This document shows, one piece after another, positions 2,604 through 50,087 of a stretch of 50,596 nt of DNA. The stretch lies in the sequence record MN850604.1, one strand, 5' to 3'. Positions within the stretch are counted from its first letter, which is position 1. Each line of letters starts with the position of its first letter. The stretch is from Escherichia phage tunzivis. A program made the position numbers and the translations under genes. A model generated the notes under the pieces. That model was not told the origin of the DNA, did no database searches, and saw nothing but the letters and a program-made list of their open reading frames with translations.

Positions 2604-2664
2604 AATTTTTCCTTTTTGGTTGGTTCGTTTCGATGAAACAAATATACCCGACACAAGGTCTGGA

Positions 2665-2683
2665 GTTTTAACAAAAAATGCTA
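2665..2683 (-). promoter_or_regulatory. conserved motif copy (reverse strand; variant TAGCATTTTTTGTTAAAAC), upstream of 2379..2603
   Basis: 18-nt spacer then TATATT (-10-like); CATCGAAACGAACC leader follows. Confidence 0.55.
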
Positions 2684-2801
2684 TTCCATACGCTTTACTG
2701 TAACCAATAACACACCATCATCATTGCATAAAACGTGTTCAGTGGTGCTAAAAGCTCGCATATCTGAATAAAGTAGCGTAAGTAAAGCATGAATAAAATC
2801 A

Positions 2802-3197
2802 TCATGTGATATTGAATTTACGGCGCAGTGCTTCAAGATCTTGTCTATTAGCTTTTGCCTGGAACAATTCATCATCGCCCATCTCCCCTATTCTAGCTAT
2901 ATCCCTGATCCAGTCGTTGCGCATACCATCCAGGCTATACAATTCGAATCCGAAAGGCCGCTTTGACGATCCTTTGGACCAGTATTTTCCGCAGACTCCA
3001 TCTATATAACCAGCCGTCATCATTCTTGCGCAAAATTCCTTAGATGCAAGGCTGGCGAACATTCGCGGCGTAAGTCCGGCGGCCCGTGCGAGCCGCTCAC
3101 ATTCTCTATGCTGATAGATAAATTTGGCTATGTGCTGCCTGTTAAACCAATCGTATGACTCACACCATTTATACAGATCAAGCAAAAACATAATCAT
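2802..3197 (-). CDS. hypothetical protein
   Basis: 131-aa ORF; start ATG overlaps stop of upstream gene 3194..4774 (ATGA coupling). Confidence 0.45.
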   Translation of the reverse strand: MIMFLLDLYKWCESYDWFNRQHIAKFIYQHRECERLARAAGLTPRMFASLASKEFCARMMTAGYIDGVCGKYWSKGSSKRPFGFELYSLDGMRNDWIRDIARIGEMGDDELFQAKANRQDLEALRRKFNIT

Positions 3198-4774
3198 CCC
3201 AGCAGTATTGGATTGACAAAAATAACACCATTAATCACACAAACATAATTTCTTTCTTCCAGCATTGGCAGTAAGTGCCCTTCTATCCTTTTCATTACGC
3301 CAGCCTGACCAACGAAAGGTTTTACCTTTCTCGCTGATTCGTACAGGGCGCGGATATTCAGAATCCCTTTATTAGCCTTGCCGTGCCTCGTGATCAATTC
3401 AATCAATTTACCCATTTCAGCATCATCACCAGCATAACCAGAAGCATTGGCGGCGCTAATGTATGTTTTGCTCAATTCCTGAAACATGATCAACGCCTCT
3501 TGCATTGTTTCCACGTCGATCTCTTTCGACTTCTGCGGGTATCCGGCAGGATTAAACCAGTTACGGATAACATGCAGGACGGAAGCAAGCCTGATCACCT
3601 GTTTATCCATTTTACCCAGCGCACCGCGTAACATTGTATGAGAATACTTTCCTCCGTCTGCAAGATGCGGTTCCATATCCTGGCGAGCAATGTTGAGCAC
3701 TCGCATAGCTGAACGGCTTATTTTCAGCGATATATTTGATTCGCTCATGATGTTATGCACCAATTGATAATATTGGGCTTTCAATTCAGAATCCACCGCC
3801 TCATAGGTAGAATCACCATTTTCATCAATGAATGAGCGACGGCCTAAGAATGATTCCTCTCGGACCAACAAAAAACGCTCACTAACACCGATGCCTCGCG
3901 ATCCAGCGTCCATGATTCCGCTTATCGTTTCATCCTGGGCTATGACGCTCATACATCCAAGCGCGCGAAAACTCATATTATTGTCAGCATTAGCACGGGC
4001 AATTGATACGTGACCATTATCCCACGCCTTAAGCACTAACTCACTGTTAGTCTTCCTTTCGCTATTTGCATAGGTCAAGCCTAACAGACTGTTAATACTT
4101 GTTGCTTCATCAGATATTACGGCAAAGTTACCTTGCTTGTTGTTGATTTTCGCCAAGCCTTCTGGAGTTGTATCTGAAACAGGAAAAGTTATATCACACA
4201 TTTTTTCCAGCTTTTCCTCCAGATCCTCTTTTTCCTGGTATAGAGATTCCATATCAGCGCCGGATCTTTCGCTTTTCATCTCCTTTGCAAGACCTGCCAG
4301 CTTTGCCTGTATTTTCTTTCTTTCCTTGCGGCGTTGCTCGTTGATCTTCTCAACTTCCGCAATCATCGGAGCAATAGCCATGCTGTTGATCGCAGATTTA
4401 CCAGTTGACGGCGGCTGGCTTGTAACGACGTAAAGCGCAGTCGGCTGATCGGTTCCGTGATAGTCAACCGTAAAGCGTCCAAGCATAGCGGCAGAAATGC
4501 AGCCGATAAAGTGCATGTAAGCCGATGATTCAGGGAATTGAACGGATCGCGCAATGCTGCGTGATAACTTGCCGACAACATCAATATCATTACCAAGAGA
4601 AATAACGGGGTAGCGATCGTGACCGCTATTCACATCCTTTACGTCGCCCCAAAAGCTGGACGACTGGCGATAGCCGTTAGCCTGAATTGATACGCGAACT
4701 GGCGAAAGGTTCTGGCTTTCAGCCATAGCGATTATTTGTTGTGGAGTTAATTTGTTCGTTTCTAATGAAAACAT
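3194..4774 (-). CDS. P-loop NTPase, putative replication-associated helicase-like protein (DUF3987-like)
   Basis: 526 aa; Walker A-like VVTSQPPSTGKSAINS; RBS AAGGAGAAG; motif-type promoter 53 bp upstream; family assignment is from memory. Confidence 0.45.
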   Translation of the reverse strand: MFSLETNKLTPQQIIAMAESQNLSPVRVSIQANGYRQSSSFWGDVKDVNSGHDRYPVISLGNDIDVVGKLSRSIARSVQFPESSAYMHFIGCISAAMLGRFTVDYHGTDQPTALYVVTSQPPSTGKSAINSMAIAPMIAEVEKINEQRRKERKKIQAKLAGLAKEMKSERSGADMESLYQEKEDLEEKLEKMCDITFPVSDTTPEGLAKINNKQGNFAVISDEATSINSLLGLTYANSERKTNSELVLKAWDNGHVSIARANADNNMSFRALGCMSVIAQDETISGIMDAGSRGIGVSERFLLVREESFLGRRSFIDENGDSTYEAVDSELKAQYYQLVHNIMSESNISLKISRSAMRVLNIARQDMEPHLADGGKYSHTMLRGALGKMDKQVIRLASVLHVIRNWFNPAGYPQKSKEIDVETMQEALIMFQELSKTYISAANASGYAGDDAEMGKLIELITRHGKANKGILNIRALYESARKVKPFVGQAGVMKRIEGHLLPMLEERNYVCVINGVIFVNPILLG

Positions 4775-4826
4775 TCGTTAGCTTCTCCTTTGTGGGCCGT
4801 AAATTTTAACGGCCCAATACTACCCC

Positions 4827-4845
4827 GTTTTGTCAAAAAGTGCTA
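4827..4845 (-). promoter_or_regulatory. conserved motif copy (variant TAGCACTTTTTGACAAAAC), upstream of 3194..4774
   Basis: 18-nt spacer then TAAAAT inside GC hairpin GGGCCGTTAAAATTTACGGCCC. Confidence 0.5.
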
Positions 4846-5064
4846 TTTGATCCGCTCTATTGCAACCAGAAGTCGATCAGGCTGGCGGTCGCTGTAGCAT
4901 TCTCCTGTAATCCCATCCTTAAACGTAAAGTAAAGCGCCTTATGATATGAAAAACCAATCAGCCAACCTACCGCCGTTTTTTTGATGGGCCTGACTATAT
5001 CGCCAGGCTTGAAAGTCTTTGTGGTAGAATGCGTTACTTTGTAACGGTTTTCACTGTTTATCAC
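4843..5064 (-). CDS. hypothetical protein
   Basis: 73-aa ORF; GTG start overlapping stop of upstream gene (GTGA). Confidence 0.35.
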   Translation of the reverse strand: MINSENRYKVTHSTTKTFKPGDIVRPIKKTAVGWLIGFSYHKALYFTFKDGITGECYSDRQPDRLLVAIERIK

Positions 5065-5447
5065 AGATATTTGCCCTCAAACAGATAACAGCCGCCAGCA
5101 GAGAATCCGACCTCTTCACGGTACAGGTTCCAGCGGTCGCCGCACTCATCAAAAACATAACCCGCAACGCTTCCAAGCGGTCGCCCTTTCTCGATCTGGT
5201 ATCGCTTGCCCTGCTTAAAGTGCTTTTTGCACGGCATGTTATGATCTACAAACGTGCAAAGAACGGTTTTTGTGTTAATGGCGCGGTAATCATCTCGGTT
5301 TGCTGGAAGCCAGCGGCTACCCTTAACAAGCGTCTTAACCTGGAACTCTTCCACCTCGATCACATCATCACTTCCTGCAATCTTCTGATAAACCGTTTTA
5401 AAACGGCCTTTCATCAATACGTTGGTTTCATTACAGATAACATTCAT
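5061..5447 (-). CDS. hypothetical protein
   Basis: 128-aa ORF; RBS AAGGAGATCT 7 nt upstream of ATG; motif-type promoter upstream. Confidence 0.45.
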   Translation of the reverse strand: MNVICNETNVLMKGRFKTVYQKIAGSDDVIEVEEFQVKTLVKGSRWLPANRDDYRAINTKTVLCTFVDHNMPCKKHFKQGKRYQIEKGRPLGSVAGYVFDECGDRWNLYREEVGFSAGGCYLFEGKYL

Positions 5448-5500
5448 GATCAGATCTCCTTTGTTTGTTCGATGTGATTATGCCAGGTTTTTACACCTGG

Positions 5501-5519
5501 CTTTTAACAAAAAGTGCTA
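5501..5519 (-). promoter_or_regulatory. conserved motif copy upstream of 5061..5447
   Basis: reverse complement of TAGCACTTTTTGTTAAAAg; hairpin GCCAGGTG..ACCTGGC; CATAAT 18 nt downstream. Confidence 0.55.
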
Positions 5520-6233
5520 TTTTGAGTTTGACTCAAAGACGGCGCGAGCAAATCCGCGCGGAGTGAGGGAGCGGATCATCTTTGTGCGCGATGACTTGCC
5601 GCCAGTTTTGGCCCAGCCTGGATTATCTTTGTCTTCCTCTTTCGGCAGGATTAAAGCGCGCGGAGGAATAACAAAGCCGTTGCCAGTCCAGAGGCACGTT
5701 TTCTTAAAATAGCGATCACGCGCCGGAATAATATCAGGGAAGTCGGGATGTTTATCATCTTCCGGCAGATAGCCAGCGTAATCGCACGGATGGAACGTAT
5801 AATCAGGCTTACGCCATAACGTTGACAACTTGCCAACCGGATTTTCGATCATGTAAGGAACACCGAAATAATCAGCTATATCAGCCGCGATTCTGCAAGT
5901 GTCGGCGGCCTCATCCTGGAACGATGGATTCTCAAGGCGTTTTTTGGCCCAATGGCGAGATCCGCTATTTGCAAGGTCGGTGCAAGGAGGGAACGCCATA
6001 ATAAAATCAGGATTGCCCCACTCATTATTGATTGCCTTAACATAAAAAGCATCATCAATCCAGACGTTAACGTATTCGATATTCTCATGCTGTATGCGCA
6101 CTGACTGGTAATCACCGTGATCGCCGCCGTCAGCATTAAAGCAAATGCACTTATAGCCATTATCAGCCCAATCTTTAACGGCTTTACCAGATCCATCAAA
6201 TAGGGAGAATATAAAACCTTTATACATCGTCAT
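5517..6233 (-). CDS. compact DNA (cytosine-5)-methyltransferase
   Basis: ORF 5517..6296; start placed at MTMYKG with GAGG RBS; C5-MTase motifs I (FSLFDGSG), IV (FPPCTDL) and VI (ENPVG) in canonical order; unusually short, no long target-recognition region. Confidence 0.6.
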   Translation of the reverse strand: MTMYKGFIFSLFDGSGKAVKDWADNGYKCICFNADGGDHGDYQSVRIQHENIEYVNVWIDDAFYVKAINNEWGNPDFIMAFPPCTDLANSGSRHWAKKRLENPSFQDEAADTCRIAADIADYFGVPYMIENPVGKLSTLWRKPDYTFHPCDYAGYLPEDDKHPDFPDIIPARDRYFKKTCLWTGNGFVIPPRALILPKEEDKDNPGWAKTGGKSSRTKMIRSLTPRGFARAVFESNSK

Positions 6234-6237
6234 TACC

Positions 6238-6462
6238 TCAAAACGGAAAACAGCGCGGACAACCAGGATCGAAATCGCATCCACAATCATTAACAATCAT
6301 AGTTGGATCTGCAAATATTGCGCTTGATTCAAGATCCATATCCATATCACCTAAAGCCTCATCAAGAGTCTTAATTTTATATGCCACTTCAAGCGCCGCC
6401 TCTTTATTTAGTCCGGCATCTTCTGCCATTTGAAGGCGCTCAAAAAATCCGTCTTGACTCAT
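6238..6462 (-). CDS. hypothetical Cys-rich small protein
   Basis: 74 aa; C-terminal CGCDFDPGCPRC cluster; RBS AAGGGGA. Confidence 0.4.
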   Translation of the reverse strand: MSQDGFFERLQMAEDAGLNKEAALEVAYKIKTLDEALGDMDMDLESSAIFADPTMIVNDCGCDFDPGCPRCFPF

Positions 6463-6586
6463 CGCATAATCCCCTTAATAACAGCCAAGATAATAGCCAT
6501 GCCAGCAGCAGTAACCAAAAAACCAACCGCGCCAATAATCGAATAAAAAAAGAAATCAATAGCCTTATCTATCACTTTCCACCTCA
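6459..6586 (-). CDS. small hydrophobic protein (not in ORF track, <60 aa)
   Basis: 42 codons read manually (MRWKVIDKAIDFFFYSIIGAVGFLVTAAGMAIILAVIKGIMR); stop overlaps start of 6238..6462 (ATGA). Confidence 0.3.
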
Positions 6587-6617
6587 TTTAAAAGGCGGCA
6601 AAACGCCGCCAGATTAA

Positions 6618-6845
6618 TTAAAGAGCACGCCAACTTTGAATATAGAAAGAGTTTTCTTCCAGTAATTCTTTTAACTGATCTTTATTGTATTTGCGCACCT
6701 TACCGCCTGGATGGATACCAATAAGATAGCCGCCTTTGCCCTCGGTGATAGTGATTTGGCTAATTCCACAAGACTTATCAAGTTTTACAGCCACGCGGTG
6801 ATGAGCGTCAATAGTTGACATAATGTTTAAAACTTTTGCTTTCAT
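6618..6845 (-). CDS. hypothetical protein
   Basis: 75-aa ORF; RBS GAGGAT. Confidence 0.45.
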   Translation of the reverse strand: MKAKVLNIMSTIDAHHRVAVKLDKSCGISQITITEGKGGYLIGIHPGGKVRKYNKDQLKELLEENSFYIQSWRAL

Positions 6846-6953
6846 TTAAATATCCTCAATTGAAATATGAATGGCGTCGTGCTCTTTTTCCGTCGCCGCC
6901 GTAATGGTCATTTGCAACCGCTACCATCCAGGCATTTTTGAAAATAAATAGCC

Positions 6954-7166
6954 TCATTTCTTATTTTTCATCTTAAATTTATGGCCTGGAACACCAGCAC
7001 CAATATATCCATCGTTGTATTCCATTAAATAAAGGTGAAGGCCATTATCTGAAATTACATGAGGATCTTCTTTGAGATTTCCCATTAGCGGGTATTCTTT
7101 TCCGCGCGTAAATCTCCAAGTTGAGTCATAAGTTTCTACGCATTTAAGTTTTAATTGCTTTGCCAT
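6954..7166 (-). CDS. hypothetical protein
   Basis: 70-aa ORF; start overlaps stop of upstream gene (TAATG). Confidence 0.45.
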   Translation of the reverse strand: MAKQLKLKCVETYDSTWRFTRGKEYPLMGNLKEDPHVISDNGLHLYLMEYNDGYIGAGVPGHKFKMKNKK

Positions 7167-7363
7167 TAGATGATCTCCATGTATGTTTCAAAGCCATTTA
7201 ACTTGAACAGGCCGTTTTCACATTTGCGAACGTTCCAAGTTAGCCCTGAGTGGTACGCCTCCATATCATCAAGGTCAATGGTGATTTCAGCACCTTTCTT
7301 AAACAAACCTTTTTCGTGAGACTTGTCGCGCTTAACAACTTTAACATCAACCTGATTTTCCAT
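7166..7363 (-). CDS. hypothetical protein
   Basis: 65-aa ORF; RBS GAGGAT; motif-type promoter upstream. Confidence 0.45.
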   Translation of the reverse strand: MENQVDVKVVKRDKSHEKGLFKKGAEITIDLDDMEAYHSGLTWNVRKCENGLFKLNGFETYMEII

Positions 7364-7417
7364 CTTTAAATCCTCGTTTGTTGTCGATGCGCTTACTATA
7401 CCAATCAGCAGCGCATC

Positions 7418-7437
7418 GTTTTTAACAAAAAGTGCTA
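7418..7437 (-). promoter_or_regulatory. conserved motif copy upstream of 7166..7363
   Basis: motif then hairpin GATGCGCT..AGCGCATC containing TATAGT at 17-nt spacing. Confidence 0.55.
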
Positions 7438-7438
7438 T

Positions 7439-7702
7439 TTAGTCCAGAAATTCGATTTCACGCTCTCCAGTTAACGGATTCACAAGCCAGAATCCGAGTG
7501 GTTCGCCGTGAACACCGCCATAGAATCCAAGAGCCGTCAGATCTTCACCTTTAACGAATACCAGGTTTCCGCTACGGCTTACGTGAGACACGTTAACGAT
7601 AACCGGAAATGTGCGATCCTTAAATGCAGGCCGCAGGGCGTAACATCCGTTATTGAGCAAACGTGCTTTGCGCTTAACTGGAATAGGTGCATTAATTTTC
7701 AT
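7439..7702 (-). CDS. hypothetical protein
   Basis: 87-aa ORF; RBS AAGGAG. Confidence 0.45.
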   Translation of the reverse strand: MKINAPIPVKRKARLLNNGCYALRPAFKDRTFPVIVNVSHVSRSGNLVFVKGEDLTALGFYGGVHGEPLGFWLVNPLTGEREIEFLD

Positions 7703-7714
7703 GGTTATTACTCC

Positions 7715-7927
7715 TTATCGTAAAGATTTAAAGACGTATAGTTTATTGCGGTAACTATATATCCGCATTGTTATTTCTCGCAGCGCAATATATTCCTTCC
7801 TGTTTTCCGGCAGACTGGCGAGCAACAACAGGCAGTATTTATAAGCGCGGTCAAGATTCCTTTCCGTGCCCCTGCAATATCCCTTATTGCGCCTGGAGCG
7901 GTACAGCCATAACAATTTCTTGAACAT
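7715..7927 (-). CDS. hypothetical protein
   Basis: ORF 7715..8017; start moved to internal ATG (MFKKLLW) preceded by GGGAGGA. Confidence 0.4.
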   Translation of the reverse strand: MFKKLLWLYRSRRNKGYCRGTERNLDRAYKYCLLLLASLPENRKEYIALREITMRIYSYRNKLYVFKSLR

Positions 7928-7928
7928 T

Positions 7929-8138
7929 TCAGATCCTCCCATACAGATCGCAAACTTCGTTGATAAAACAGCGTTGAGACTCTTTATCCTGCTTCTCAAA
8001 AATTGCGCGGCATTCAAACTTAAGATTATGCACGATGACTACAACCATATTTTCAGGCATTGAGCGGTTATAGCGTCGCGCGTCAGTGATTAAAACATCC
8101 ATACCCATCTCATGTGCTTTCTTGATCACATCCAACAT
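7929..8138 (-). CDS. hypothetical protein
   Basis: ORF 7929..8162 begins with TTG; internal ATG (MLDVIKK) preceded by AGGAGAAG chosen. Confidence 0.4.
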   Translation of the reverse strand: MLDVIKKAHEMGMDVLITDARRYNRSMPENMVVVIVHNLKFECRAIFEKQDKESQRCFINEVCDLYGRI

Positions 8139-8392
8139 TTTTTCTTCTCCTGCAATAAGCAAACATCATTGATAAAATCAGCACGGCCCTTAATGTTGCT
8201 GATGTGGAACGTCTTTTCAGCGTACAGGCCATCACCTTCAATCACGATCATTACGCGAGTCGGTTTATTCACGGGCGCACACGAAAAGAGTGGTCGCGCC
8301 GGAAGAAATTTAGTGGTCACATCCAGGTTGGCCCTGGCGGCCCTGCAAAACGCCTCCGCCAGATCCAAATCATTTTCGGTAATCACCGCCAT
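8126..8392 (-). CDS. hypothetical protein
   Basis: 88-aa ORF; TAATG overlap with upstream gene. Confidence 0.45.
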   Translation of the reverse strand: MAVITENDLDLAEAFCRAARANLDVTTKFLPARPLFSCAPVNKPTRVMIVIEGDGLYAEKTFHISNIKGRADFINDVCLLQEKKKCWM

Positions 8393-8664
8393 TACTTCTT
8401 GATCTCCTTACTGATAAATTTCAGCACCTGGCGCAAGAAAACTTCGTTGTTGATAGTCGCTGGCAATTCTTCTTTCACTTCTTGCGGCAGATAGATATTG
8501 CCGTGCCAGGTCAAGCAATCGTAGTTGATACGATAAGAGCAAAGCCACTCGCAATCGTTATCTGCTTCCCAAATGCAGAGTTGCAGAACATCGCCAAAAT
8601 CTTCAACAGTCAGATCCAGACCGTGACGCTTAGCGAAATTGAAAGTGGTTTTGCTGATGTTCAT
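8392..8664 (-). CDS. hypothetical protein (first gene of leftward early operon)
   Basis: 90-aa ORF; RBS AGGAGAT; motif-type promoter at 8724..8742. Confidence 0.45.
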   Translation of the reverse strand: MNISKTTFNFAKRHGLDLTVEDFGDVLQLCIWEADNDCEWLCSYRINYDCLTWHGNIYLPQEVKEELPATINNEVFLRQVLKFISKEIKK

Positions 8665-8723
8665 TTACTATCTCCTGAGCGGTTCGTTTCGATGTGTGTA
8701 ATGTACCCGATCAGGCGGCCTGA

Positions 8724-8742
8724 GTTTTAACAAAAAGTGCTA
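8724..8742 (-). promoter_or_regulatory. conserved motif copy upstream of 8392..8664
   Basis: exact 19-mer; 18-nt spacer; TACATT; CATCGAAACGAACC leader. Confidence 0.55.
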
Positions 8743-8749
8743 TTTGACG

Positions 8750-9300
8750 GTTATCGCCAGGATTGCGATCGAAATAATCAAAAGTAATCATTCGTAATCA
8801 AATCACGTCAAAATGATGATTGCCTTTGCAAATTTGATGAGAAAAGCAATCACGTTTAATCATTGGTTGCAGGGGAGATAGTGAAACCTTCCCCTCTTGC
8901 CTCACTTTTCCGCTTGGCTGTCAGCGGTTGTTGTCTTTTGTTCACCCCTGTTACCGATTTCAGGCGGCGTGTTTCCGCGCGGTTTTCCGGTGTATCGAAA
9001 ACGGAAAAAACAAAAAAAATCCTTTATAATACATTGAAAATAAAGATTATTTATTTATATATATCTATAATGTTTTCTTTTTGTTCTCACTGTTACAGTG
9101 CTTTTTGTTGGGTATGGTGTGTTTGTGTGTGGGTATATATGGATAGTTGCGCGCGCGGCGGATTGCATATGTATATATACTTTTTCCGGCGGATTGCGTT
9201 AACAGCGTGAACAGAAAAATAACAGCCCTGAAATCAATAACTTGCGCATGATTTTGTAGTTTTTCGATATTGGTAACGTTTTGAATACAACAAAAACATT
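8750..9300. repeat. AT-rich divergent control region with short direct repeats (TAATCA-type), TA/TG-rich tracts and a motif-like AGTGCTTTTTGTT
   Basis: TAATCA/AATCAC repeats 8775..8870; GGTTTTCCGGTGTATCGAAAAC 8981..9002; TTATTTATTTATATATATCTATAAT 9047..9071; GTGTGTTTGTGTGTGGGTATATATGG 9118..9143. Confidence 0.5.
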
Positions 9301-9326
9301 GACACGCACAAAATAGCTTTTATAAT
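9299..9326 (+). promoter_or_regulatory. consensus sigma70 promoter (TTGACA-16 nt-TATAAT), candidate early promoter
   Basis: TTGACA at 9299..9304, TATAAT at 9321..9326; 32 bp upstream of first rightward gene. Confidence 0.65.
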
Positions 9327-9357
9327 GCGCCAACAGTCAACAACTGGAGGAAAGGAA

Positions 9358-9822
9358 ATGGAACAGAAGACCACTAAGGACTATTGCGATTGGCTTCGCG
9401 AGCTTGGTCGCCGCCTGGCTAGTGGCGATATTGAAGAGTATAAAATGTCACTAATTGACCTGGCCGGAATGTTAAGCGGTGACGACTGCTACAAGATCAC
9501 GCGCAGTTCATCCTACAGCCGGACCATTATCAACCGCGTTCCAGAAGTAAGGGCCGCAGGTCGGGTAAGCATCAAGGTAGAGGAAACGGAAGATGATAAA
9601 TTTTACGTTTTCCGCATGGTCCGCGAATCGAAAAGGAAAATCATCACACCCGAAGAATTGCCAGCCATCAAGGCAAGGGCGATCAAAAAGTTTGCCGATC
9701 GCATACTGGCAGCAATCCCGAATATCGTGGACCTGGAAGGGGATAAACTGGCTGGGGCTTGCGAGGGTGTAAGCCGCTACCAGGATATGATCCGCGAAAT
9801 CATCAAAGAGGAAGAGCAATGA
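9358..9822 (+). CDS. hypothetical early protein (first gene after consensus sigma70 promoter)
   Basis: ORF 9325..9822; ATG at 9358 preceded by GGAGGAAAGG; 154 aa; a possible DNA-binding role is speculation. Confidence 0.45.
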   Translation: MEQKTTKDYCDWLRELGRRLASGDIEEYKMSLIDLAGMLSGDDCYKITRSSSYSRTIINRVPEVRAAGRVSIKVEETEDDKFYVFRMVRESKRKIITPEELPAIKARAIKKFADRILAAIPNIVDLEGDKLAGACEGVSRYQDMIREIIKEEEQ

Positions 9823-10091
9823 AAAAGGCATTAATCAGCGTTTTGGCGGCAATGGCATTCCTGACCGGATGCAAAGAAGATGGCGCGCATGTTGGCAATG
9901 TGCAGATGGCTAACCCTGGCGATGACTACAGCGTAAGGGAGCTATTCACCGCTGACGGTTGCACCGTTTACCGATTCTATGACGATCGCACTGTTTACTT
10001 CACCAACTGCAAGGGCACTACTAGCTGGGAAGTGTCGAAAAGCAATGGCAAAGGCACGAAGACAGAACATATGACCGTCGAGACAAAATAG
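9819..10091 (+). CDS. lipoprotein (candidate superinfection-exclusion protein)
   Basis: ORF 9759..10091; ATG at 9819; signal peptide with lipobox LTGC; about 70 mature residues with two further Cys; stop TAG is part of the downstream motif. Confidence 0.5.
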   Translation: MKKALISVLAAMAFLTGCKEDGAHVGNVQMANPGDDYSVRELFTADGCTVYRFYDDRTVYFTNCKGTTSWEVSKSNGKGTKTEHMTVETK

Positions 10092-10107
10092 CACTTTTTG
10101 TTAAAAC
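10089..10107 (+). promoter_or_regulatory. conserved motif copy upstream of 10164..10349
   Basis: exact TAGCACTTTTTGTTAAAAC; hairpin GCCAGGTGCAAAGCCTGGC; CATAAT 10126..10131; leader CATCGAAACGAG. Confidence 0.6.
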
Positions 10108-10163
10108 GCCAGGTGCAAAGCCTGGCATAATAGCCTCATCGAAACGAGATTGAGGAAACAAAA

Positions 10164-10349
10164 ATGGCACGTCGCATCACCAAAGACCTTAAAGTACTGA
10201 ACAAAGAAAACGTAGTTAAAATCCTGGTTATCTGGGGCTACAACGAAGAAACAGCAAAGCAGAAGGTAGAGGCAGGTTATGACCTGGCTGTAAAAGCAAT
10301 GCCAAACGATGACGCCAAAGGCATTGCAAACTATGTAGCGTTCTTTTAA
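10164..10349 (+). CDS. hypothetical protein
   Basis: 61-aa ORF downstream of a motif-type promoter and CATCGAAACGA leader. Confidence 0.4.
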   Translation: MARRITKDLKVLNKENVVKILVIWGYNEETAKQKVEAGYDLAVKAMPNDDAKGIANYVAFF

Positions 10350-10364
10350 TTAGCAGGTGAATAG

Positions 10365-10550
10365 ATGAAAACGAAATTAGTCCATAAGTCAGAAATCAAG
10401 ATCGGCGATACTGTGATTCACAACGGCGAGCTTAGAACGGTTGGCAAGGAGTCAATAAGCCACGATGAATTTATGGGGATCTTGTTGTTCGGTGACTCTT
10501 ATCGTCTTGGTTACAAGATGGTTGAGCTTGTGGAAGATGTCAAATTCTAA
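10365..10550 (+). CDS. hypothetical protein
   Basis: 61-aa ORF; RBS AGGTGA. Confidence 0.4.
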   Translation: MKTKLVHKSEIKIGDTVIHNGELRTVGKESISHDEFMGILLFGDSYRLGYKMVELVEDVKF

Positions 10551-10551
10551 A

Positions 10552-10570
10552 TAGCACTTTTTGTTAAAAC
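10552..10570 (+). promoter_or_regulatory. conserved motif copy upstream of 10649..11542
   Basis: exact 19-mer; CATAAT 10589..10594 (18-nt spacer). Confidence 0.55.
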
Positions 10571-10648
10571 TCGAAAACGATAACCAGGCATAATAAATCA
10601 CATATGGCGGCACGGCGTCGCCCACAAAACCAATCAGGAGAAAGCACC

Positions 10649-11542
10649 ATGTTAAAACTTGCTGACATTAAATTCCCGATCACCTTCGAATCTCGCGGCA
10701 TTGGTCATTACATTTTTACCGATGAAAAAACATGCCATAAGGTTGATATGAATAGCGACAAACTAAGCCCATCAGACATGGAGATTGAACACTTTATTGA
10801 TGCGCACAATACGCAGTACAACGCACTTAAAGACTATGGCTATGCAATGCCAGGATATACCAGCTTCCACTACAAGCCATATAAAGGCCAGGTGTTGCCA
10901 GTGCGCTCACCGGAACGCGCAGAGATTCCGATGGTCGAGATGAAAACATGCGACTATAAAAAGCTGTGGTGCTTAAGTGTTGACAATATCAAGTATCCGA
11001 TCACGTTCTACACGGTTGGTAATTCAACGATTCGATTCACATCGCGCGACAATGGCGTTTATAGCGATGGTACGAAATCAGAGTTGAAAGTTGATTTCTT
11101 TGTCAACGGTCACAATAGATACAATCCGCACAACGAAGAGGATAAAGTGTACTACGTGGAAGACATTACAAAACACTTGTTTGGAGAAACTCCATTCGGC
11201 GGCGGTAAGACGTCAATTCAAAAAATCATTGGCGATGAGATCCACAAAGCGGCTGCCGAAATGAAAGCGCCTGGAGGCTGGCGTATTGACAAGAGCGCAT
11301 TTGCAAATCAAGAAATAGTAACGCAGGGAGCAATTGAAGATATGCCAGTTGCAGCCACTCTAAAAGGAGTCCGGCTTGATGACGGCACCTGGTATGAAGT
11401 AACGGCTACACCAAAGACGATCGAGATTCATGATGACGTTGTTATCCTTCTGCTTCACTACGGCGGCTATAAAAACCGGACGATTGCAGGTGAGATCAGC
11501 ATCAAGCGCGGAACGATGGTTAAGTGGAAGGTGAAGATTTGA
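10649..11542 (+). CDS. hypothetical protein
   Basis: ORF 10604..11542; ATG at 10649 preceded by AGGAG preferred over 10604 (which would be leaderless). Confidence 0.45.
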   Translation: MLKLADIKFPITFESRGIGHYIFTDEKTCHKVDMNSDKLSPSDMEIEHFIDAHNTQYNALKDYGYAMPGYTSFHYKPYKGQVLPVRSPERAEIPMVEMKTCDYKKLWCLSVDNIKYPITFYTVGNSTIRFTSRDNGVYSDGTKSELKVDFFVNGHNRYNPHNEEDKVYYVEDITKHLFGETPFGGGKTSIQKIIGDEIHKAAAEMKAPGGWRIDKSAFANQEIVTQGAIEDMPVAATLKGVRLDDGTWYEVTATPKTIEIHDDVVILLLHYGGYKNRTIAGEISIKRGTMVKWKVKI

Positions 11543-11618
11543 GTTTGTTCACTGCGGCGCACGTCGCCGCATGGATCGGATTGTTTGCCTACCTGTTTAG
11601 CTTTTATTGAGGTGAGAG

Positions 11619-11771
11619 ATGGCTACCTGGATTTTACTGATTCTTATGATTGATGGCGGCGTTGACCATATCGAAATGAATAGCCAGCAATCTTGCATTG
11701 AGGCACGAGAGCAGATCAAGAACAACAACGGGTTTTATGCGTACACTCACACGCTATGTATTAAGAAATAG
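11619..11771 (+). CDS. small hydrophobic protein, paralog of 12777..12938 (<60 aa, not in track)
   Basis: Manual read MATWILLILMIDGG...CIEAREQIKNNNGFYAYTHTLCIKK; RBS GAGGTGAGAG; stop TAG is the first triplet of the motif at 11769. Confidence 0.4.
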   Translation: MATWILLILMIDGGVDHIEMNSQQSCIEAREQIKNNNGFYAYTHTLCIKK

Positions 11772-11787
11772 CACTTTTTGTTAAAAC
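11769..11787 (+). promoter_or_regulatory. conserved motif copy upstream of 11841..12062
   Basis: exact 19-mer; TATAAT 11805..11810 embedded in GGCCA..TGGCC hairpin. Confidence 0.55.
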
Positions 11788-11840
11788 TCAAATGTGGGGC
11801 CAAGTATAATGGCCTCACTTTCAACGAAGGAGATAAAACG

Positions 11841-12062
11841 ATGTACATTAAAAAGAAGATGAAATGCATTTCCGTTAACTATGCTTGCTCTGGCATGTTC
11901 AAGCCTGGCGAAATCTATACGGCGCAAAAACTGAAATCATCAACCGGATCTTTTTACGTGAGCAATAATAAGGGGCATCGCATGTTCCTGAACGGCGGCG
12001 AAGGCACTAAGGTTATGGCGCACGCTATGGTAATTGCTGAATTTGAGGAAGTGAAAGAATGA
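11841..12062 (+). CDS. hypothetical protein
   Basis: ORF 11778..12062; ATG at 11841 preceded by AAGGAGA. Confidence 0.4.
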   Translation: MYIKKKMKCISVNYACSGMFKPGEIYTAQKLKSSTGSFYVSNNKGHRMFLNGGEGTKVMAHAMVIAEFEEVKE

Positions 12063-12244
12063 TTATCTACGTTGTGCATGGTGATATTTACTACGACGGA
12101 GAATACTTTGAGGGAGCCTTCAGCGAATTTGATAAGGCAGAACAGCACGCTGAGACGCTTCCGGATTGTTACGACGAAGTAACAATACGCGAGATAAAAC
12201 TTGATGATCCAACATATGATGGCGACAAATGGAGCGTAAAATGA
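12059..12244 (+). CDS. hypothetical protein
   Basis: 61-aa ORF overlapping neighbours by 4 nt each side. Confidence 0.4.
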   Translation: MIIYVVHGDIYYDGEYFEGAFSEFDKAEQHAETLPDCYDEVTIREIKLDDPTYDGDKWSVK

Positions 12245-12780
12245 AAAAATACACTTTCGAACTGTGGGGCAAGAAGTACGAATTAATCACCAGCAAGCCG
12301 ATTGTTATCGTTGACCTGGACGGCACACTATCGGACGGATCGCATCGTCTGCACTTGCTGCCAACTGAAAACTTGCACCTTGCCGAATCGTGGAGCGAAT
12401 TTAACAGGGCCGCCGACGGAGATTCACCGATTAAGAGCACGATCGCGGTTATTAACGGTTTGTGGGTGTCAGGATTTGCCATCGTCATCTTGACCGGACG
12501 TAGCGACGAGGTTCGCTATAAAACCTGCAAATGGTTGAATGAGAACGGTGTGAAGTTTGACGAAATCATCATGCGCCGCCAGGAGGACAACCGAAAGGAT
12601 ACGGTTATTAAAGAAGAAGCCTTGCGCGCCATTGGCCTGGACAGCATTGTTTGCGCCTTTGACGATTCGCCGAACGTTGTTAAGCACTTCCGCAGCCTGG
12701 GAATCACAACCTATCAGGTCACGGAATACGACAAGCCGCACGCTCACCTGCAATCTCACGGCGTGGAGTGTTTAAAATGA
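12241..12780 (+). CDS. HAD-superfamily phosphatase (polynucleotide 3-prime-phosphatase / nucleotidase-like)
   Basis: ORF 12229..12780; HAD motif I VIVDLDGTLSD near N-terminus; ATGA overlap with upstream gene. Confidence 0.55.
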   Translation: MKKYTFELWGKKYELITSKPIVIVDLDGTLSDGSHRLHLLPTENLHLAESWSEFNRAADGDSPIKSTIAVINGLWVSGFAIVILTGRSDEVRYKTCKWLNENGVKFDEIIMRRQEDNRKDTVIKEEALRAIGLDSIVCAFDDSPNVVKHFRSLGITTYQVTEYDKPHAHLQSHGVECLK

Positions 12781-12938
12781 CTTGGTTGCTTTTAATCTTT
12801 GTCACAAGTTACAACTCCGCAGCTATTGAGTCGCAGGAGTTCCACGGCGAATCAAGATGCCAGGAAGCGCGAAAGCAAGTTATTCTCCACATGTCAGATA
12901 GTGGGAAGGATGTAACAGCGTTATGCGTTCGTAAATAG
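12777..12938 (+). CDS. small hydrophobic protein, paralog of 11619..11771 (<60 aa, not in track)
   Basis: Manual read MTWLLLIFVTSYNSAAIESQEFHGESRCQEARKQVILHMSDSGKDVTALCVRK; ATGA overlap with phosphatase stop; stop TAG is the first triplet of the motif at 12936. Confidence 0.4.
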   Translation: MTWLLLIFVTSYNSAAIESQEFHGESRCQEARKQVILHMSDSGKDVTALCVRK

Positions 12939-12955
12939 CACTTTTTGCAAAAAAC
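12936..12955 (+). promoter_or_regulatory. conserved motif copy (variant TAGCACTTTTTGCAAAAAAC) upstream of 13011..13274
   Basis: 18-nt spacer then TATAGT 12974..12979 inside GGGCTT..AAGCCC hairpin. Confidence 0.5.
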
Positions 12956-13010
12956 AGATCATTGGGCTTGCTGTATAGTAAGCCCATCAACAACAAACGA
13001 GGATTAAATC

Positions 13011-13274
13011 ATGGCTAACAAGATCGAGTTTTTTAAAGCTGTAGACATTATCGACGGCGCGCCTAGCTTCTTTGCTATCCATTCTATTGACGGCAAGGAT
13101 ATTGGGTACAACGTTATCCGTCGAGATGGAATATCAAAAATTAGTGACCTGGTAGGCCATATTGTGTCAAACGGGAAATGCGCATGGCCCGATTCGCCAC
13201 GAGAGCCGCGCCGCCGCGACATGGTAGAGCCTGTTCTGCTTTACACTCTGGTAGTAGAGGGAGAAAATAAATGA
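13011..13274 (+). CDS. hypothetical protein
   Basis: 87-aa ORF; RBS GAGGA; downstream of motif-type promoter. Confidence 0.45.
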   Translation: MANKIEFFKAVDIIDGAPSFFAIHSIDGKDIGYNVIRRDGISKISDLVGHIVSNGKCAWPDSPREPRRRDMVEPVLLYTLVVEGENK

Positions 13275-13456
13275 TTTTGTTACTTGCTTTTTTGGTTGTT
13301 TTTCTTTACATTTCAGGCTTATTCACGTTCCGCGCGTTTGTGAAATATTCTGGCGCGACAGACAAGGACGATAAAATCGTTCTCGCTTTCTGGTTTGTTT
13401 GGGTGTGGTTAGCAATTTACGAGATCATCAGAGAAAAACAGAAATTTGAGTGGTGA
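13271..13456 (+). CDS. small membrane protein
   Basis: 61 aa, two hydrophobic segments; ATGA overlap. Confidence 0.4.
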   Translation: MILLLAFLVVFLYISGLFTFRAFVKYSGATDKDDKIVLAFWFVWVWLAIYEIIREKQKFEW

Positions 13457-13515
13457 TTCTTGCTATGGCGCATTCATGCAGTGCGCCATGTTGAGAAAAC
13501 CTAAAGGGGGAGACG

Positions 13516-13665
13516 ATGCGTAACTTTGAAAAAATCATTACCAAAAAGAAGCGTCGCGGGTACGATGAGCATGTGGAGCTTGTGAAAAAGCAACGCAAGA
13601 AGCGCAACGAAGACAAGAAGCGCGGGAAAAAATTTAATGCGATTTTTCGCTATGGAGATCATTAA
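13516..13665 (+). CDS. small basic protein (<60 aa, not in track)
   Basis: Manual read MRNFEKIITKKKRRGYDEHVELVKKQRKKRNEDKKRGKKF...; RBS AAAGGGGGAGA. Confidence 0.3.
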   Translation: MRNFEKIITKKKRRGYDEHVELVKKQRKKRNEDKKRGKKFNAIFRYGDH

Positions 13666-13667
13666 TC

Positions 13668-14258
13668 ATGAAACGAGACATTATCATTCTTAATGGGCCG
13701 CCAGGTTGCGGGAAGGACACTATTGCAGCTTACCTAACGGGCCATCGTTACCCAGCGGTTAAGGCGTCATTCAAACAGCCGATGTTCGATATTGCGTTTT
13801 CCATGCTTGGCCCGACTCGATATGATGAGTTTATTGACCTGTACAACGACCGAGAGCAAAAAGAAAAGCCTCAAGTTATCTTAGGCGGCAAGTCACCTCG
13901 ACAATTCATGATCTGGATTAGCGAGGATGTAATGAAGCCAGTCTTTGGGGATCACTATTTCGGGCGTCGCATGGTTGAAGAGATTCACGAGATGTACCGA
14001 GATTTAGCGGTTGTGATCAGTGATGGGGGATTCCCCGAAGAAGTCAAGCCGCTTGTTAAGGCAGGGCATGAGGTGCATATTTGCCGATTGCATCGCGACG
14101 GCTTCACGTTTGCTGGCGATTCGAGAGACTACATTGACCTGAGCGGTTATCACTATCGAATCCATCACTATGACTTCCACTTGCAGGACGGAAAGCCGGA
14201 ACTGGCTGTAAACGAGATCGTCAATGCTGTCAAATGGAAGCACACACAGATTAAATAG
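13668..14258 (+). CDS. P-loop kinase (dNMP kinase / polynucleotide kinase-like)
   Basis: 196 aa; Walker A LNGPPGCGKDT at N-terminus, as in phage nucleotide kinases. Confidence 0.55.
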   Translation: MKRDIIILNGPPGCGKDTIAAYLTGHRYPAVKASFKQPMFDIAFSMLGPTRYDEFIDLYNDREQKEKPQVILGGKSPRQFMIWISEDVMKPVFGDHYFGRRMVEEIHEMYRDLAVVISDGGFPEEVKPLVKAGHEVHICRLHRDGFTFAGDSRDYIDLSGYHYRIHHYDFHLQDGKPELAVNEIVNAVKWKHTQIK

Positions 14259-14273
14259 CACGAATTGCTAAAC
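14256..14273 (+). promoter_or_regulatory. conserved motif copy (variant TAGCACGAATTGCTAAAC) upstream of 14329..14730
   Basis: TATAAT at 14293..14298, 37 bp from TAGCAC; GC hairpin between. Confidence 0.5.
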
Positions 14274-14328
14274 GCGGGGCGCAATGCCTCGCTATAATGC
14301 AAACACCAATCAACGAGAGGAAACAATC

Positions 14329-45969: not shown

Positions 45970-46446
45970 TTAGCTATTTGTGCTGTTATCACCTTTGTAG
46001 AATCGTCCGCCTGGTTCGTAGTCTGAATTTTTGACTACGCGCAACATCTCGTATTTGTCGCAACGGGTAGTAAGAGGCTTACCGTTAGAATCAAACCGCA
46101 GATCTGGACGACAAAATGATGCGCGGTATCCTTTGCATCCATTATATTTGTAGTCGTTATGCACCTTTTGTGCTCCAGCGGCTGAAATCATACCACGCTT
46201 TCGCCATTGGTTAACGACTTGCTGAGATACGCGTAGACGTCGAGCCATAGCAGGAACACCGCCATAATACTCGATCAGAATATCCAGGCGAGATTTCAGG
46301 CTTGCTTTTACCTCATCTCGCAGGATAAGAAATCCGGTTCGGTGTTTTCGTGGCTTTTTGTCTTTACCTCGTCGCGTTCCGTTGTTACCGTTAATAGTGC
46401 GCTTGTCGATCTCACCCGTAGAAACTGCAATTCGTGCATCTTTCAT
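45970..46446 (-). CDS. HTH DNA-binding protein (candidate transcription regulator)
   Basis: 158 aa; helix-turn-helix-like GGVPAMARRLRVSQQVVNQWRKRG; RBS AGGTGA abuts an inverted copy of the conserved motif. Confidence 0.5.
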   Translation of the reverse strand: MKDARIAVSTGEIDKRTINGNNGTRRGKDKKPRKHRTGFLILRDEVKASLKSRLDILIEYYGGVPAMARRLRVSQQVVNQWRKRGMISAAGAQKVHNDYKYNGCKGYRASFCRPDLRFDSNGKPLTTRCDKYEMLRVVKNSDYEPGGRFYKGDNSTNS

Positions 46447-48531: not shown

Positions 48532-48950
48532 TGGCTATAACTGATAAAGGAGATTATCTTGAGTTTTACGAAAGAGATCCAACCGACACGAGAAAGGAAG
48601 TTAATCACCAGATAGATAGCTTTCAGTGGTTGACTTATGCTCATCCTTATTTGCTAGCGTGGCATACGGTAAACGAGAATGAGAAGTCGAAAGTAACGGC
48701 GATGATTGATCAGCAGTCCGGATTGGTTAAGGGGGTAAGCGATTTCATCATCCTGATTGGTTCAAACGGAAAATACCCCTTTGCAGCGATTGAGATCAAA
48801 CGAGTTAATAAATCAGGCAAGGGGAAAGCATCACCAGTCAGCGATGAACAAAAGGCTTTTTTGCGTCGCGTTCGCAGCTTAGGAGGATTCGCTGCGGTCG
48901 CCTACGGATTTAATCAGTTTAAGTTAGCTATTGAATACATGCTTAAATAG
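48531..48950 (+). CDS. VRR-NUC-type nuclease (putative)
   Basis: 139 aa; PD-(D/E)xK-like core VSDFIILIGSNGKYPFAAIEIKR...SDEQK; ATGA overlap with helicase. Confidence 0.45.
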   Translation: MAITDKGDYLEFYERDPTDTRKEVNHQIDSFQWLTYAHPYLLAWHTVNENEKSKVTAMIDQQSGLVKGVSDFIILIGSNGKYPFAAIEIKRVNKSGKGKASPVSDEQKAFLRRVRSLGGFAAVAYGFNQFKLAIEYMLK

Positions 48951-48966
48951 CACTTTTTGTTAAAAC
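48948..48966 (+). promoter_or_regulatory. conserved motif copy upstream of dam
   Basis: exact 19-mer; hairpin TGGCGCgatggattGCGCCA; CATAAT 48985..48990. Confidence 0.55.
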
Positions 48967-49024
48967 TGGCGCGATGGATTGCGCCATAATTCAATAACAC
49001 GAGATGGCTTTTAATAGCGGAGAA

Positions 49025-49756
49025 ATGAAAATGGCTAAAGATATTTTAGATAAAGACACCCATGACGCATTTGTTAGCTTTGAGCAGTTGGAGAGAGAAA
49101 CGTTTATAGGAAATGCTCTTGCAACTGGAGGCTATTACCAGGCAGTAAAGCCAAATCAATATTATAAGGTAAGCGGCAACCGATACGCTGGAAGCACTAC
49201 GCCGGACGTTGTGCGCGATATGTGGAGCACACCTCAAGAGATCGTTGAGTGGATGGAATCAGAATTTGGCGAATACGATCTCGACGCGGCAGCAAGCCAG
49301 GAAAACGCAGTTTGCGAGAAGTTCTATAGCAAGGAAACAAACTGCTTAAAGCGTTGGTGGGGTAGCAACAAGCACGTATGGCTTAACCCGCCGTACAGCA
49401 ACCCAACTCCATTTATCAAGAAAGCAATTGAGCAAATGGAGCACAACAACCAAATTGATGTTTTGCTGCCTGCCGACAATTCCACGGCCTGGTTTTATGA
49501 GGCGCAGAAAAACGCGGCTGAAATCATCTGGATCACTGGAGAAGTTTACGAAGAGGGGGGAGTGGAATATTCCCGCACCGGAAGAATCGCCTTTGTGTCT
49601 GGATTGACTGGCGAGCCTGTACAGGGCAACAATAAGGGGAGCGTGATTTTTGTCATGCGTAAACTTAAAGAAGGCGAAGAGCAGAAAACGCGATACGTTA
49701 AGATCAGCGATATTTGCCCTTCTGTAACCGAACGCCGCGCGCGCAAACGGAGCTAA
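49025..49756 (+). CDS. dam: DNA N6-adenine methyltransferase (phage Dam-type)
   Basis: ORF 49004..49756; start placed at ATG 49025 after GGAG; catalytic NPPY motif (WLNPPYSN). Confidence 0.7.
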   Translation: MKMAKDILDKDTHDAFVSFEQLERETFIGNALATGGYYQAVKPNQYYKVSGNRYAGSTTPDVVRDMWSTPQEIVEWMESEFGEYDLDAAASQENAVCEKFYSKETNCLKRWWGSNKHVWLNPPYSNPTPFIKKAIEQMEHNNQIDVLLPADNSTAWFYEAQKNAAEIIWITGEVYEEGGVEYSRTGRIAFVSGLTGEPVQGNNKGSVIFVMRKLKEGEEQKTRYVKISDICPSVTERRARKRS

Positions 49757-49760
49757 CACG

Positions 49761-50018
49761 ATGAAAAAAGAGAGAAGCGTTTATTTAAATGAAACTGGCG
49801 AGTGGTTGTTATTTCGCGCTATGGTGTGCGATGCACTTGATAAAAACCCTAACGTGAAAAAGATGATTGATTGCGATCCGTGGGAATTTTCAAGCGCATT
49901 AGATATGAGCTTTGAGGATACAAGAAAACTACCTCTTGAAAAATGGCACGAACAAATAAGAAATGACATGCAAGAGTTTGTCGATTCGTGGAATTTTCAG
50001 AACGGAATGATCCACTAA
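49761..50018 (+). CDS. hypothetical protein
   Basis: 85-aa ORF; stop adjacent to motif at 50019. Confidence 0.45.
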   Translation: MKKERSVYLNETGEWLLFRAMVCDALDKNPNVKKMIDCDPWEFSSALDMSFEDTRKLPLEKWHEQIRNDMQEFVDSWNFQNGMIH

Positions 50019-50037
50019 TAGCACTTTTTGTTAAAAC
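50019..50037 (+). promoter_or_regulatory. conserved motif copy upstream of 50088..50273
   Basis: exact 19-mer; hairpin GCCCGGCATTTTGTCGGGC; CATAAT 50056..50061; leader CATCGAAACGAACG. Confidence 0.6.
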
Positions 50038-50087
50038 GCCCGGCATTTTGTCGGGCATAATTATTTCATCGAAACGAACGTGAGGAA

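Follow-up and report, generated by a model that had tools for sequence, protein, structure and literature searches.

A recurrent string at the predicted transcript start of small-gene promoters in Escherichia phage tunzivis: a candidate sigma-70 start-site element

The 50,596-nucleotide (nt) sequence of Escherichia phage tunzivis (record MN850604.1; hereafter the window, meaning the whole stretch that was analyzed) carries the string CATCGAAACGAR in the leaders of four small genes. We propose, with moderate confidence, that this string is the start-site and initial transcribed element of strong sigma-70 phage promoters, which lie in cassettes resembling the promoter-early stem-loops (PeSLs) of T4-type phages. 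Judged by nucleotide identity, the window is essentially the complete genome of a T1-like coliphage (Drexlerviridae, Warwickvirus). A 3-kb sample of it (9000-12000) is 95-98% identical to Escherichia phages tonijn, tonnikala, SECphi27, and others, and 98.5% identical to vB-Eco-KMB46, which is classified in Drexlerviridae, Tempevirinae, Warwickvirus.

An earlier note, made from the sequence alone, had pointed to one string shared by the leaders of at least four genes, and the repetition is real. The window contains four exact matches to CATCGAAACGAR, compared with a mean of 0.03 in 100 dinucleotide shuffles, none of which reached four (Table 1). A relaxed search of the whole window, allowing up to two mismatches, returned 16 matches against 16.8 expected; this is chance level, and the signal thus consists of the exact copies and of variants locked to the same register. 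All four copies share one layout, in which the repeat TAGCACTTTTTGTTAAAAC is followed by 18 nt, a -10-like hexamer, 5 nt, the string, and, after a further 11-17 nt that include the ribosome-binding site (RBS), a start codon. When the hexamer is placed at -12 to -7, the string falls at -1 to +11 and the A of its CAT, 7 nt past the hexamer, becomes the predicted start. The string had been placed between the -10 hexamer and the RBS; it does lie in the leader, and its position can now be refined, in that it begins at -1 and is predicted from this spacing to form the 5' end of the transcript (the first 11 bases). The proteins encoded downstream (74, 90, 61, and 61 aa) show no mutual similarity by blastp. 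This rules out paralogy of the four genes, so that gene duplication does not explain the repeated string, and it bears out the suggestion of a conserved transcribed cis-element common to unrelated small genes.

A degenerate copy had also been reported before the gene starting at 5447. It exists, and it lies 3 nt nearer to the -10 hexamer, out of register; better variants, all in register, are found at three other promoters (7379-7389, 12985-12995, and 15619-15629). An orthologue of the 5447 promoter (locus L039) has the normal register (CATAAT-cattt-CACCGAAACGAA). By this comparison, a loss of 3 nt has brought hexamer and box closer together in the window promoter, and the start point of the 5447 gene has probably been shifted into the box as a result. 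The cassette of the 15619-15629 variant is also present in T1, there with other flanking genes.

Across the T1 family, the string keeps a fixed distance from the -10 hexamer. The offset was identical in all 28 unique copies of the exact 11-mer in the first set of loci. In 1.26 Mb of T1-like and associated loci, counting only occurrences in unique contexts, a hexamer of the form nAnnnT stood exactly 5 nt upstream in 70 of 70 occurrences, and the 11-mer had zero occurrences outside this promoter register. We also scanned IMG/VR for the repeat and aligned the resulting 209 unique T1-family promoters by register. Their consensus from -4 to +11 is CCYCATCGAAACGAA (C-C-Y-C-A-T-C-G-A-A-A-C-G-A-A), with 0.99 bit of information at C -1, 1.26 bit at A +1, and 0.2-0.8 bit at the other consensus positions. 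Further upstream, a G at -14 (1.32 bit) precedes TAtaaT, which indicates an extended -10 element, and the spacer is without information. These promoters thus have the pyrimidine at -1 and purine at +1 that characterize a sigma-70 start. They also have the fixed register that such a start requires, which is 6-8 nt past the -10 hexamer, the predicted distance here being 7 nt. T1 itself has no exact copy of the box and carries in-register versions with one or two mismatches (CATCAAAACGA, CATAGAAACGA, and CACCAAAACGA).

Orthologous promoters indicate that the box itself is under purifying selection. For the 10164 gene, for which 17 loci were fetched, the box does not vary among 16 unique orthologous promoters, and identity between their spacers is 62%. 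For the 8664 gene, we fetched 43 loci with protein identities from 100% down to 44%, and the box is kept in orthologues as distant as 44-45%. Mean pairwise identity among the 8664 orthologues was 0.77 for the box, compared with 0.45 for the spacer, 0.67 for the -10 hexamer, 0.42 for the discriminator, 0.38 for +11 to +21, and 0.67 for the first 30 nt of coding sequence. It is the far better preservation of the box relative to spacer and leader that argues for selection on the box. Absence of the string from homologous leaders in related phages had been named as a finding that would speak against a shared element; the string is present in them.

The same box recurs behind promoters of another type, outside the T1 family. 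Homologues of the 8664 and 10164 genes in ECD7, a 164.7-kb RB49-like Krischvirus, are both preceded by TTGACA-17-CATAAT promoters with the box 5 nt after the hexamer. When IMG/VR was scanned with the pattern TTGACA-N27-29-CATCGAAACGA, of which the -10 hexamer was not a part, at least 120 loci were found. An nAnnnT hexamer lay exactly 5 nt upstream of the 11-mer in 78 of the 122 matches listed, and the other offsets were mostly 0-11, the highest being 20. Three composition-matched control 11-mers, of which two keep CA and one keeps CAT (the scrambles used include CAGAACTACGA and CATAGCGACAA), yielded 13, 10, and 31 loci from the entire collection; 0, 1, and 3 of these, respectively, were in register. 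The matches listed form 80 sequence clusters, and those in register form 49, corresponding to at least 49 unrelated groups with canonical promoters of the form TTGACA-17-TAnnnT. Promoters at the same loci that had not been selected for the box were enriched for it as well, 45 of 281 lying within three mismatches compared with 1.7 expected. Phages that carry the box behind a canonical promoter include Krischvirus ECD7, Agrobacterium phage Atu_ph07, and a Jersey-like siphovirus; the source contigs range from 13 to 490 kb, and one contig of 154 kb has five copies. The occurrence of the box thus does not depend on the T1-type repeat or on the type of promoter upstream.

Atu_ph07 is a jumbo phage of 490 kb whose host is an alphaproteobacterium. 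Across four loci it shows at least six near-identical promoters of the form TTGACATTATTTTT..TATAAC-5 nt-CATCGAAACGA ahead of small open reading frames (ORFs). Bacterial genomes gave a signal much weaker than the viral one and largely due to chance: 596 Gb yielded 118 matches, of which 32 were in register, about 15 of the 32 being a single Bradyrhizobium locus. At this locus, which is conserved in Bradyrhizobium chromosomes and was seen at nine loci of our set and others, TTGACACGTCGGGCAAAACACYGGCAKAATGGCAT-CATCGAAACGAGTTTG is followed by a GC-rich hairpin and a T run. It looks, from this arrangement, like a small RNA gene that begins with the same box.

The box could instead have no direct function and simply hitchhike in a repeated cassette that is spread and homogenized by recombination in the manner of PeSLs, serving at most as a short patch of homology at which small genes are exchanged. 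Mosaic junctions are indeed frequent. Among T1-family cassettes, 151 pairs share a spacer and differ in both flanks; 25 pairs have a common upstream region and spacer with another leader and gene, the junction falling at the box; and a further 28 and 53 pairs have their junction at the repeat. The 8664 orthologues combine varied -10/discriminator types and leaders around the same box. Exchange may even have crossed families, as the small genes at 10164-10349(+) and 8392-8664(-) are 79% and 64% identical at the protein level to their ECD7 homologues. Nucleotide homology between the window and ECD7 begins at GCATAAT..CATCGAAACGA, skips a diverged leader, continues at about 80% over the 61-codon gene, and ends at the stop codon, where the next PeSL of ECD7 begins. 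From these boundaries, a promoter-plus-small-gene cassette looks to have been exchanged between a siphovirus and a myovirus family, and crossovers between the -10 hexamer and the RBS have been demonstrated experimentally for PeSLs (PMC2839356). Against hitchhiking as the whole account, the 49 unrelated in-register clusters among the matches listed share just the 11-mer and T-poor positions: their flanks carry about 0.05-0.5 bit and T is nearly absent to about +16, so that transfer of long cassettes does not explain them. The box is also better conserved than spacer and leader in orthologous promoters, and 11 nt is very short and would serve homologous recombination poorly. We therefore regard mere hitchhiking as distinctly unlikely.

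A second alternative retains a function and moves it to the RNA. The earlier note had favored a shared post-transcriptional signal such as an RNase site, a translational operator, or a site for an RNA-binding protein, and these readings fare poorly. The string takes its register from the -10 hexamer and the predicted start (in 70 of 70 occurrences) and not from the RBS or the start codon, as a translational operator would: from +1 to the start codon there are 26-31 nt in the four window leaders and 22-41 nt in other phages. Twice a transfer RNA (tRNA) gene lies downstream instead, a tRNA-Met beginning 12 nt past the predicted start at one locus (L281) and a tRNA-Glu following directly after the box at another (L432). 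With just one U and no extended stem, the box resembles neither the internal AU-rich single strand of an RNase E site nor the long stem of an RNase III site. It is predicted to form the very 5' terminus of the transcript, which excludes a role as an RNase site inside that transcript.

RNA structure predictions agree with this assessment. When folding begins at the predicted +1, the four leaders come out essentially unstructured (minimum free energy [MFE] -0.3 to -3.5 kcal/mol) and their RBS is free. The CCTCA...TGAGG stem that had been drawn around the string uses bases upstream of the predicted start; such stems would form in read-through RNA only and show no covariation across the family. 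A conserved stem sequestering the RBS was rejected, as it would form in read-through RNA only for three of the four genes and has no covariation in 241 promoters. In the same 241 promoters, pairing of the discriminator with the RBS region was no stronger within promoters than between permuted ones (-2.53 versus -2.56 kcal/mol), again with no covariation support, and pairing of the spacer with the RBS region was marginally above permuted pairs (-6.38 versus -5.99 ± 0.16 kcal/mol). A tiny 5' hairpin (UCG-AAA-CGA) was likewise dismissed: most of the 5' nucleotides stay unpaired in the ensemble predicted for these leaders, and in the 209 promoters the partner positions +3/+9 and +4/+8 do not co-vary, +8 being almost never G when +4 is C. 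Searching with Rfam 15 families at the gathering score gave no match anywhere in the window, and ten string-bearing loci gave tRNA only. An enhancer complementary to 16S rRNA was rejected as well; the longest exact complement is 6 nt, and the predicted duplex (-5.8 kcal/mol, compared with a mean of -8.3 kcal/mol for scrambles) is weaker than that of 98% of scrambles.

A different RNA-level function could still act at the 5' terminus, with the first 11 nt of the mRNA slowing decay through RppH or RNase E entry, offering an unstructured A-rich landing pad for ribosomes or protein S1, or binding a protein. As a transcribed element at the predicted 5' end, the box is expected to keep a fixed register under this account too. 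The leaders are unstructured, the RBS is free only in transcripts that start from the cassette's own promoter, and an RBS and start codon follow within 22-41 nt in most instances. Several results speak against it: where tRNA genes lie downstream, the leader would be removed in 5' maturation of the tRNA; the distance to RBS and start codon varies; neither a covarying structure in the 241 promoters nor an Rfam family emerged; pairing with 16S rRNA is below that of 98% of scrambles; and the hosts, as far apart as E. coli and Agrobacterium, argue against a host-specific RNA-binding factor. We consider a 5'-terminal RNA element unlikely.

A DNA operator, with a phage or host regulator binding TCGAAACGA over the start site to repress or time these promoters, is highly improbable. 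Repressor sites typically sit over +1, the box has a weak dyad (TCG-AAA-CGA), and T1-like phages have a gene for a putative transcriptional regulator, which in T1 is annotated at 35979-36431 and whose equivalent by position in the window is 45970-46446(-). A single common regulator is nevertheless unlikely for unrelated phages of different hosts, the dyad positions lack co-variation as described above, and some repeat-type promoters of the window carry the box while others do not. A second half-site is lacking, and sites for the host regulators Cra (half-site TGAAACG) and PurR were rejected on the same ground. A sigma-dependent pause element was also set aside, by sequence inspection only, as AACGAA/AACGAG does not end in T, as a -10-like hexamer would.

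Under the start-site reading that we prefer, host sigma-70 RNA polymerase would use the promoter and the string would be its start-site and initial transcribed part, from -1 to about +12. T1-like phages lack genes for either a sigma factor or an RNA polymerase, and transcription by the host enzyme is expected for them (PMC11447400). The C-A step would set the start at the A 7 nt past the -10 hexamer; the A- and purine-rich, T-poor AUCGAAACGAA beyond it would favor fast, productive promoter escape and would leave an unstructured 5' leader with a free RBS. The sequences themselves establish the register, the conservation, the recurrence within and across families, the independence of translation signals, and the mosaic context; for T1-like phages, we infer both the actual start nucleotide and an effect on initiation or escape.

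Known promoters provide a precedent for such a start region. In the T7 record, the annotated start of the E. coli promoters A1 and A3 is the A of CAGCC-A-TCGAGAGGG and ACCAC-A-TGAAACGACAG, respectively (start contexts CC-A-TCGAGAGG and CAC-A-TGAAACGAC), and the two promoters begin CATCGAGAGG and CATGAAACGAC. Both have a C-A start step a few nt past the hexamer, like the window box, which reads as CATCGA of A1 fused to GAAACGA of A3. The T7 start lies 8 nt past the hexamer compared with 7 nt in the window cassette, and upstream recognition differs, the window having the T1-family repeat in place of the -35 hexamer of T7-type promoters. Work on the T5 N25 promoter is said to have introduced the concept of a "downstream sequence region," to which the window box may be likened.

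Initial transcribed sequences are known to alter promoter output from more than 10-fold to about 1000-fold, and Heyduk and Heyduk (2018) found that +2 to +10 shifts escape over about three orders of magnitude (PMC5961368). Escape is slowed by T's and TG in the first 7 nt and favored by GA or GG near +6, and earlier work cited there linked purine content to productive yield. With one T, no TG, a GA at +4/+5, and purines at eight of 11 transcribed bases, the box has a composition that fits these published determinants of fast escape. No conserved motif has been identified in initial transcribed sequences according to the same study (PMC5961368), whereas here an exact 11-mer recurs across phage families.

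Several points weigh against the start-site reading. The recurrence of an exact 11-mer does not follow in any obvious way from general rules of composition, and the published escape data gave no positive sequence consensus (PMC5961368). The box contains CG at +3/+4 and at +8/+9; in that study this step was mildly unfavorable close to +6 in two promoter contexts, as a T at position +2 was for lacUV5. The IMG/VR matches (at least 120 loci) are not phylogenetically independent. The same register would also be expected from a 5'-terminal RNA function. Finally, the searchable literature holds no 5'-end mapping for T1-like phages, so that +1 is a predicted position.

The box is part of a larger unit. 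The repeat, in its 19-mer form aaaTAGCACTTTTTGTTAAAAC, has 16 copies in the window compared with 0.07 expected, and a -10-like hexamer follows 17-19 nt past 15 of the 16; leaders of these repeat-type promoters are mostly 22-34 nt. At several of the sites, including the four listed in Table 1, the upstream ORF ends with the TAG of the repeat, so that the repeat overlaps coding sequence and marks gene boundaries. A sigma-70 -35 hexamer at 16-18 nt is absent from the repeat-type promoters, in which -35 to -30 reads AAAACN. TTGTTA occurs inside the repeat, 22 nt from the -10 hexamer, which is too far for a -35 role. The window shows no enrichment of canonical sigma-70 promoters (20, compared with 28 expected). 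Every repeat-type promoter has an inverted repeat, located past the repeat and either ahead of the -10 hexamer or around it, and its sequence is unrelated from promoter to promoter. Over 291 promoters, the region from -31 to +2 has a mean MFE of -9.2 kcal/mol compared with -4.1 kcal/mol for shuffles (median z, -2.7), with arms at about -30 to -16 and -18 to -1 that often enclose the -10 hexamer. This stem-loop of the T1-like repeat promoters does not seem to have been described before. The cassette, of about 75 nt, would accordingly be read in the order upstream stop inside the repeat aaATAGCACTTTTTGTTAAAAC, promoter-specific stem-loop, extended -10 element, box, RBS, and start codon.

Table 1. 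Start boxes, variants, and promoter cassette parts in the window (start positions are predicted)
Feature	Position	Strand	Sequence	Details
Start box (-1 to +11)	10137-10148	+	CATCGAAACGAG	Exact match; predicted start A 10138; 5 nt past -10 hexamer CATAAT (10126-10131); 61-aa ORF 10164-10349 downstream
Start box (-1 to +11)	50067-50078	+	CATCGAAACGAA	Exact match; predicted start A 50068; 5 nt past -10 hexamer CATAAT (50056-50061); small ORF (61 aa) from 50088 or 50094 downstream
Start box (-1 to +11)	8683-8694	-	CATCGAAACGAA	Exact match; predicted start A 8693; 5 nt past -10 hexamer TACATT (8705-8700); 90-aa ORF 8664-8392 downstream
Start box (-1 to +11)	2624-2635	-	CATCGAAACGAA	Exact match; predicted start A 2634; 5 nt past -10 hexamer TATATT (2646-2641); 74-aa ORF from 2603 downstream
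In-register variant	7379-7389	-	CATCGACAACA	3 mismatches; behind repeat 7419-7437, -10 hexamer TATAGT
In-register variant	12985-12995	+	CATCAACAACA	4 mismatches; behind repeat 12936-12954, -10 hexamer TATAGT
In-register variant	15619-15629	+	TATTGAAGCGA	3 mismatches; behind repeat 15571-15589, -10 hexamer TAAAGT
Out-of-register copy	5461-5474	-	CATCGAACAAACAA	Begins 2 nt past -10 hexamer CATAAT (5482-5477)
Upstream cassette part for 10164	10086-10131	+	aaaTAGCACTTTTTGTTAAAAC; GCCAGGtgcaaaGCCTGGC	Repeat; stem-loop (10108-10126); -10 hexamer CATAAT; TAG of repeat is stop of ORF 9759-10091
Upstream cassette part for 50088	50016-50061	+	GCCCGGCattttGTCGGGC	Repeat; imperfect stem-loop (sequence given); -10 hexamer CATAAT
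Upstream cassette part for 8664	8700-8745	-	TCAGGCcGCCTGA	Repeat; stem-loop (sequence given); -10 hexamer TACATT
Upstream cassette part for 2603	2641-2686	-		Repeat with one mismatch; spacer; -10 hexamer TATATT
Repeats with TAG as upstream stop	10089-10107, 11769-11787, 12936-12954, 48948-48966			Examples among the 16 sites
Promoter stem-loop	12955-12984		GGGCTTgctgtatagtAAGCCC	
Promoter stem-loop	7390-7417	-	GATGCGCT..AGCGCATC	

This layout is that of the PeSLs of RB49, phi1, and other T4-type phages (PMC2839356, PMC4122927), which share with the T1-family cassette an upstream stop at the 5' edge, a promoter, a stem-loop before or across the -10 hexamer, and an RBS and small-gene start at the 3' edge. 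Both kinds of cassette occur in many copies and at mosaic junctions. They differ in the promoter: PeSLs have consensus -35 and -10 hexamers, and where they have an AT-rich region and the -35 hexamer, the T1-family cassettes have a repeat of 19-22 nt at -50 to -32. ECD7, which is RB49-like, forms a link between the two, with the same box behind its TTGACA...CATAAT promoters and two small genes in common with the window. Experiments on the PeSLs of RB49/phi1 have demonstrated promoter activity, terminator or attenuator activity, -10-to-RBS recombination, and the formation of mini-circles (PMC2839356). The PeSL papers describe the -35 and -10 hexamers, stem-loop, and RBS and no box in the start region, and their promoter logos end at the start site. 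RB49 early promoters are of the TTGACA type, with T or C at -12 and a C-rich -3 to -1, and their consensus reportedly agrees with 5'-end mapping.

The repeat itself has been described before. The 21-nt direct repeat aaATAGCACnnnTTGnTAAAA of phage TLS (PMC11447400) is the window repeat, in the same orientation and about 76 nt from start codons; the TLS-type repeat was also reported for T1, Rtp, and Rogue1. That paper leaves its function open (stoperator, enhancer site, or UP element) and does not describe a -10 element, stem-loop, or start box past the repeat. We found no discussion of the exact start-site string as a motif in the literature searched.

Three further sites were recorded in the course of this analysis. 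Two copies of the repeat, 24411-24429(-) and 28163-28181(-), lie in the late (structural) region, antisense to the surrounding genes; one of them lacks a -10 hexamer, and a 60-nt leader with a terminator-like hairpin (GGGGCGcaaCGCCCC) lies past the other. A perfect sigma-70 promoter, TTGACA-16-TATAAT, is present at 9299-9326(+) and is the sole 12/12 match in 2000-16500. It faces the plus-strand genes in a divergent non-coding region (8745-9325) that also contains AT-rich repeats (about 9000-9200), and its start region gcgccAACAGTCAACAAC, C-rich and then A/C-rich, differs from the box.

Going further, and only tentatively, one may picture CATCGAAACGA(A/G) as a previously unrecognized sigma-70 start box that RNA polymerase reads and that also offers micro-homology for cassette exchange. 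It is conceivable in that case, at a similarly low level of confidence, that selection of the start and rapid escape led phages of differing families and hosts to converge on the box. Exchange would then possibly be exemplified by the T1-like siphovirus and its RB49-like myovirus counterpart. If a composition effect is all that underlies the recurrence, the finding shrinks to an improved annotation of Drexlerviridae promoters. A natural consensus for initial transcribed sequences has not been described so far, and the exact 11-mer provides a concrete sequence for assays of initiation and escape; the box is also a possible part for strong, insulated synthetic promoters. For the T1-like phages, the box helps to make an unexplained 21-nt repeat readable as a cassette of repeat, stem-loop, extended -10 element, start box, and RBS. 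It also ties this cassette to the PeSLs, to which the shuffling of small early genes is attributed, in this case apparently even across phage families.

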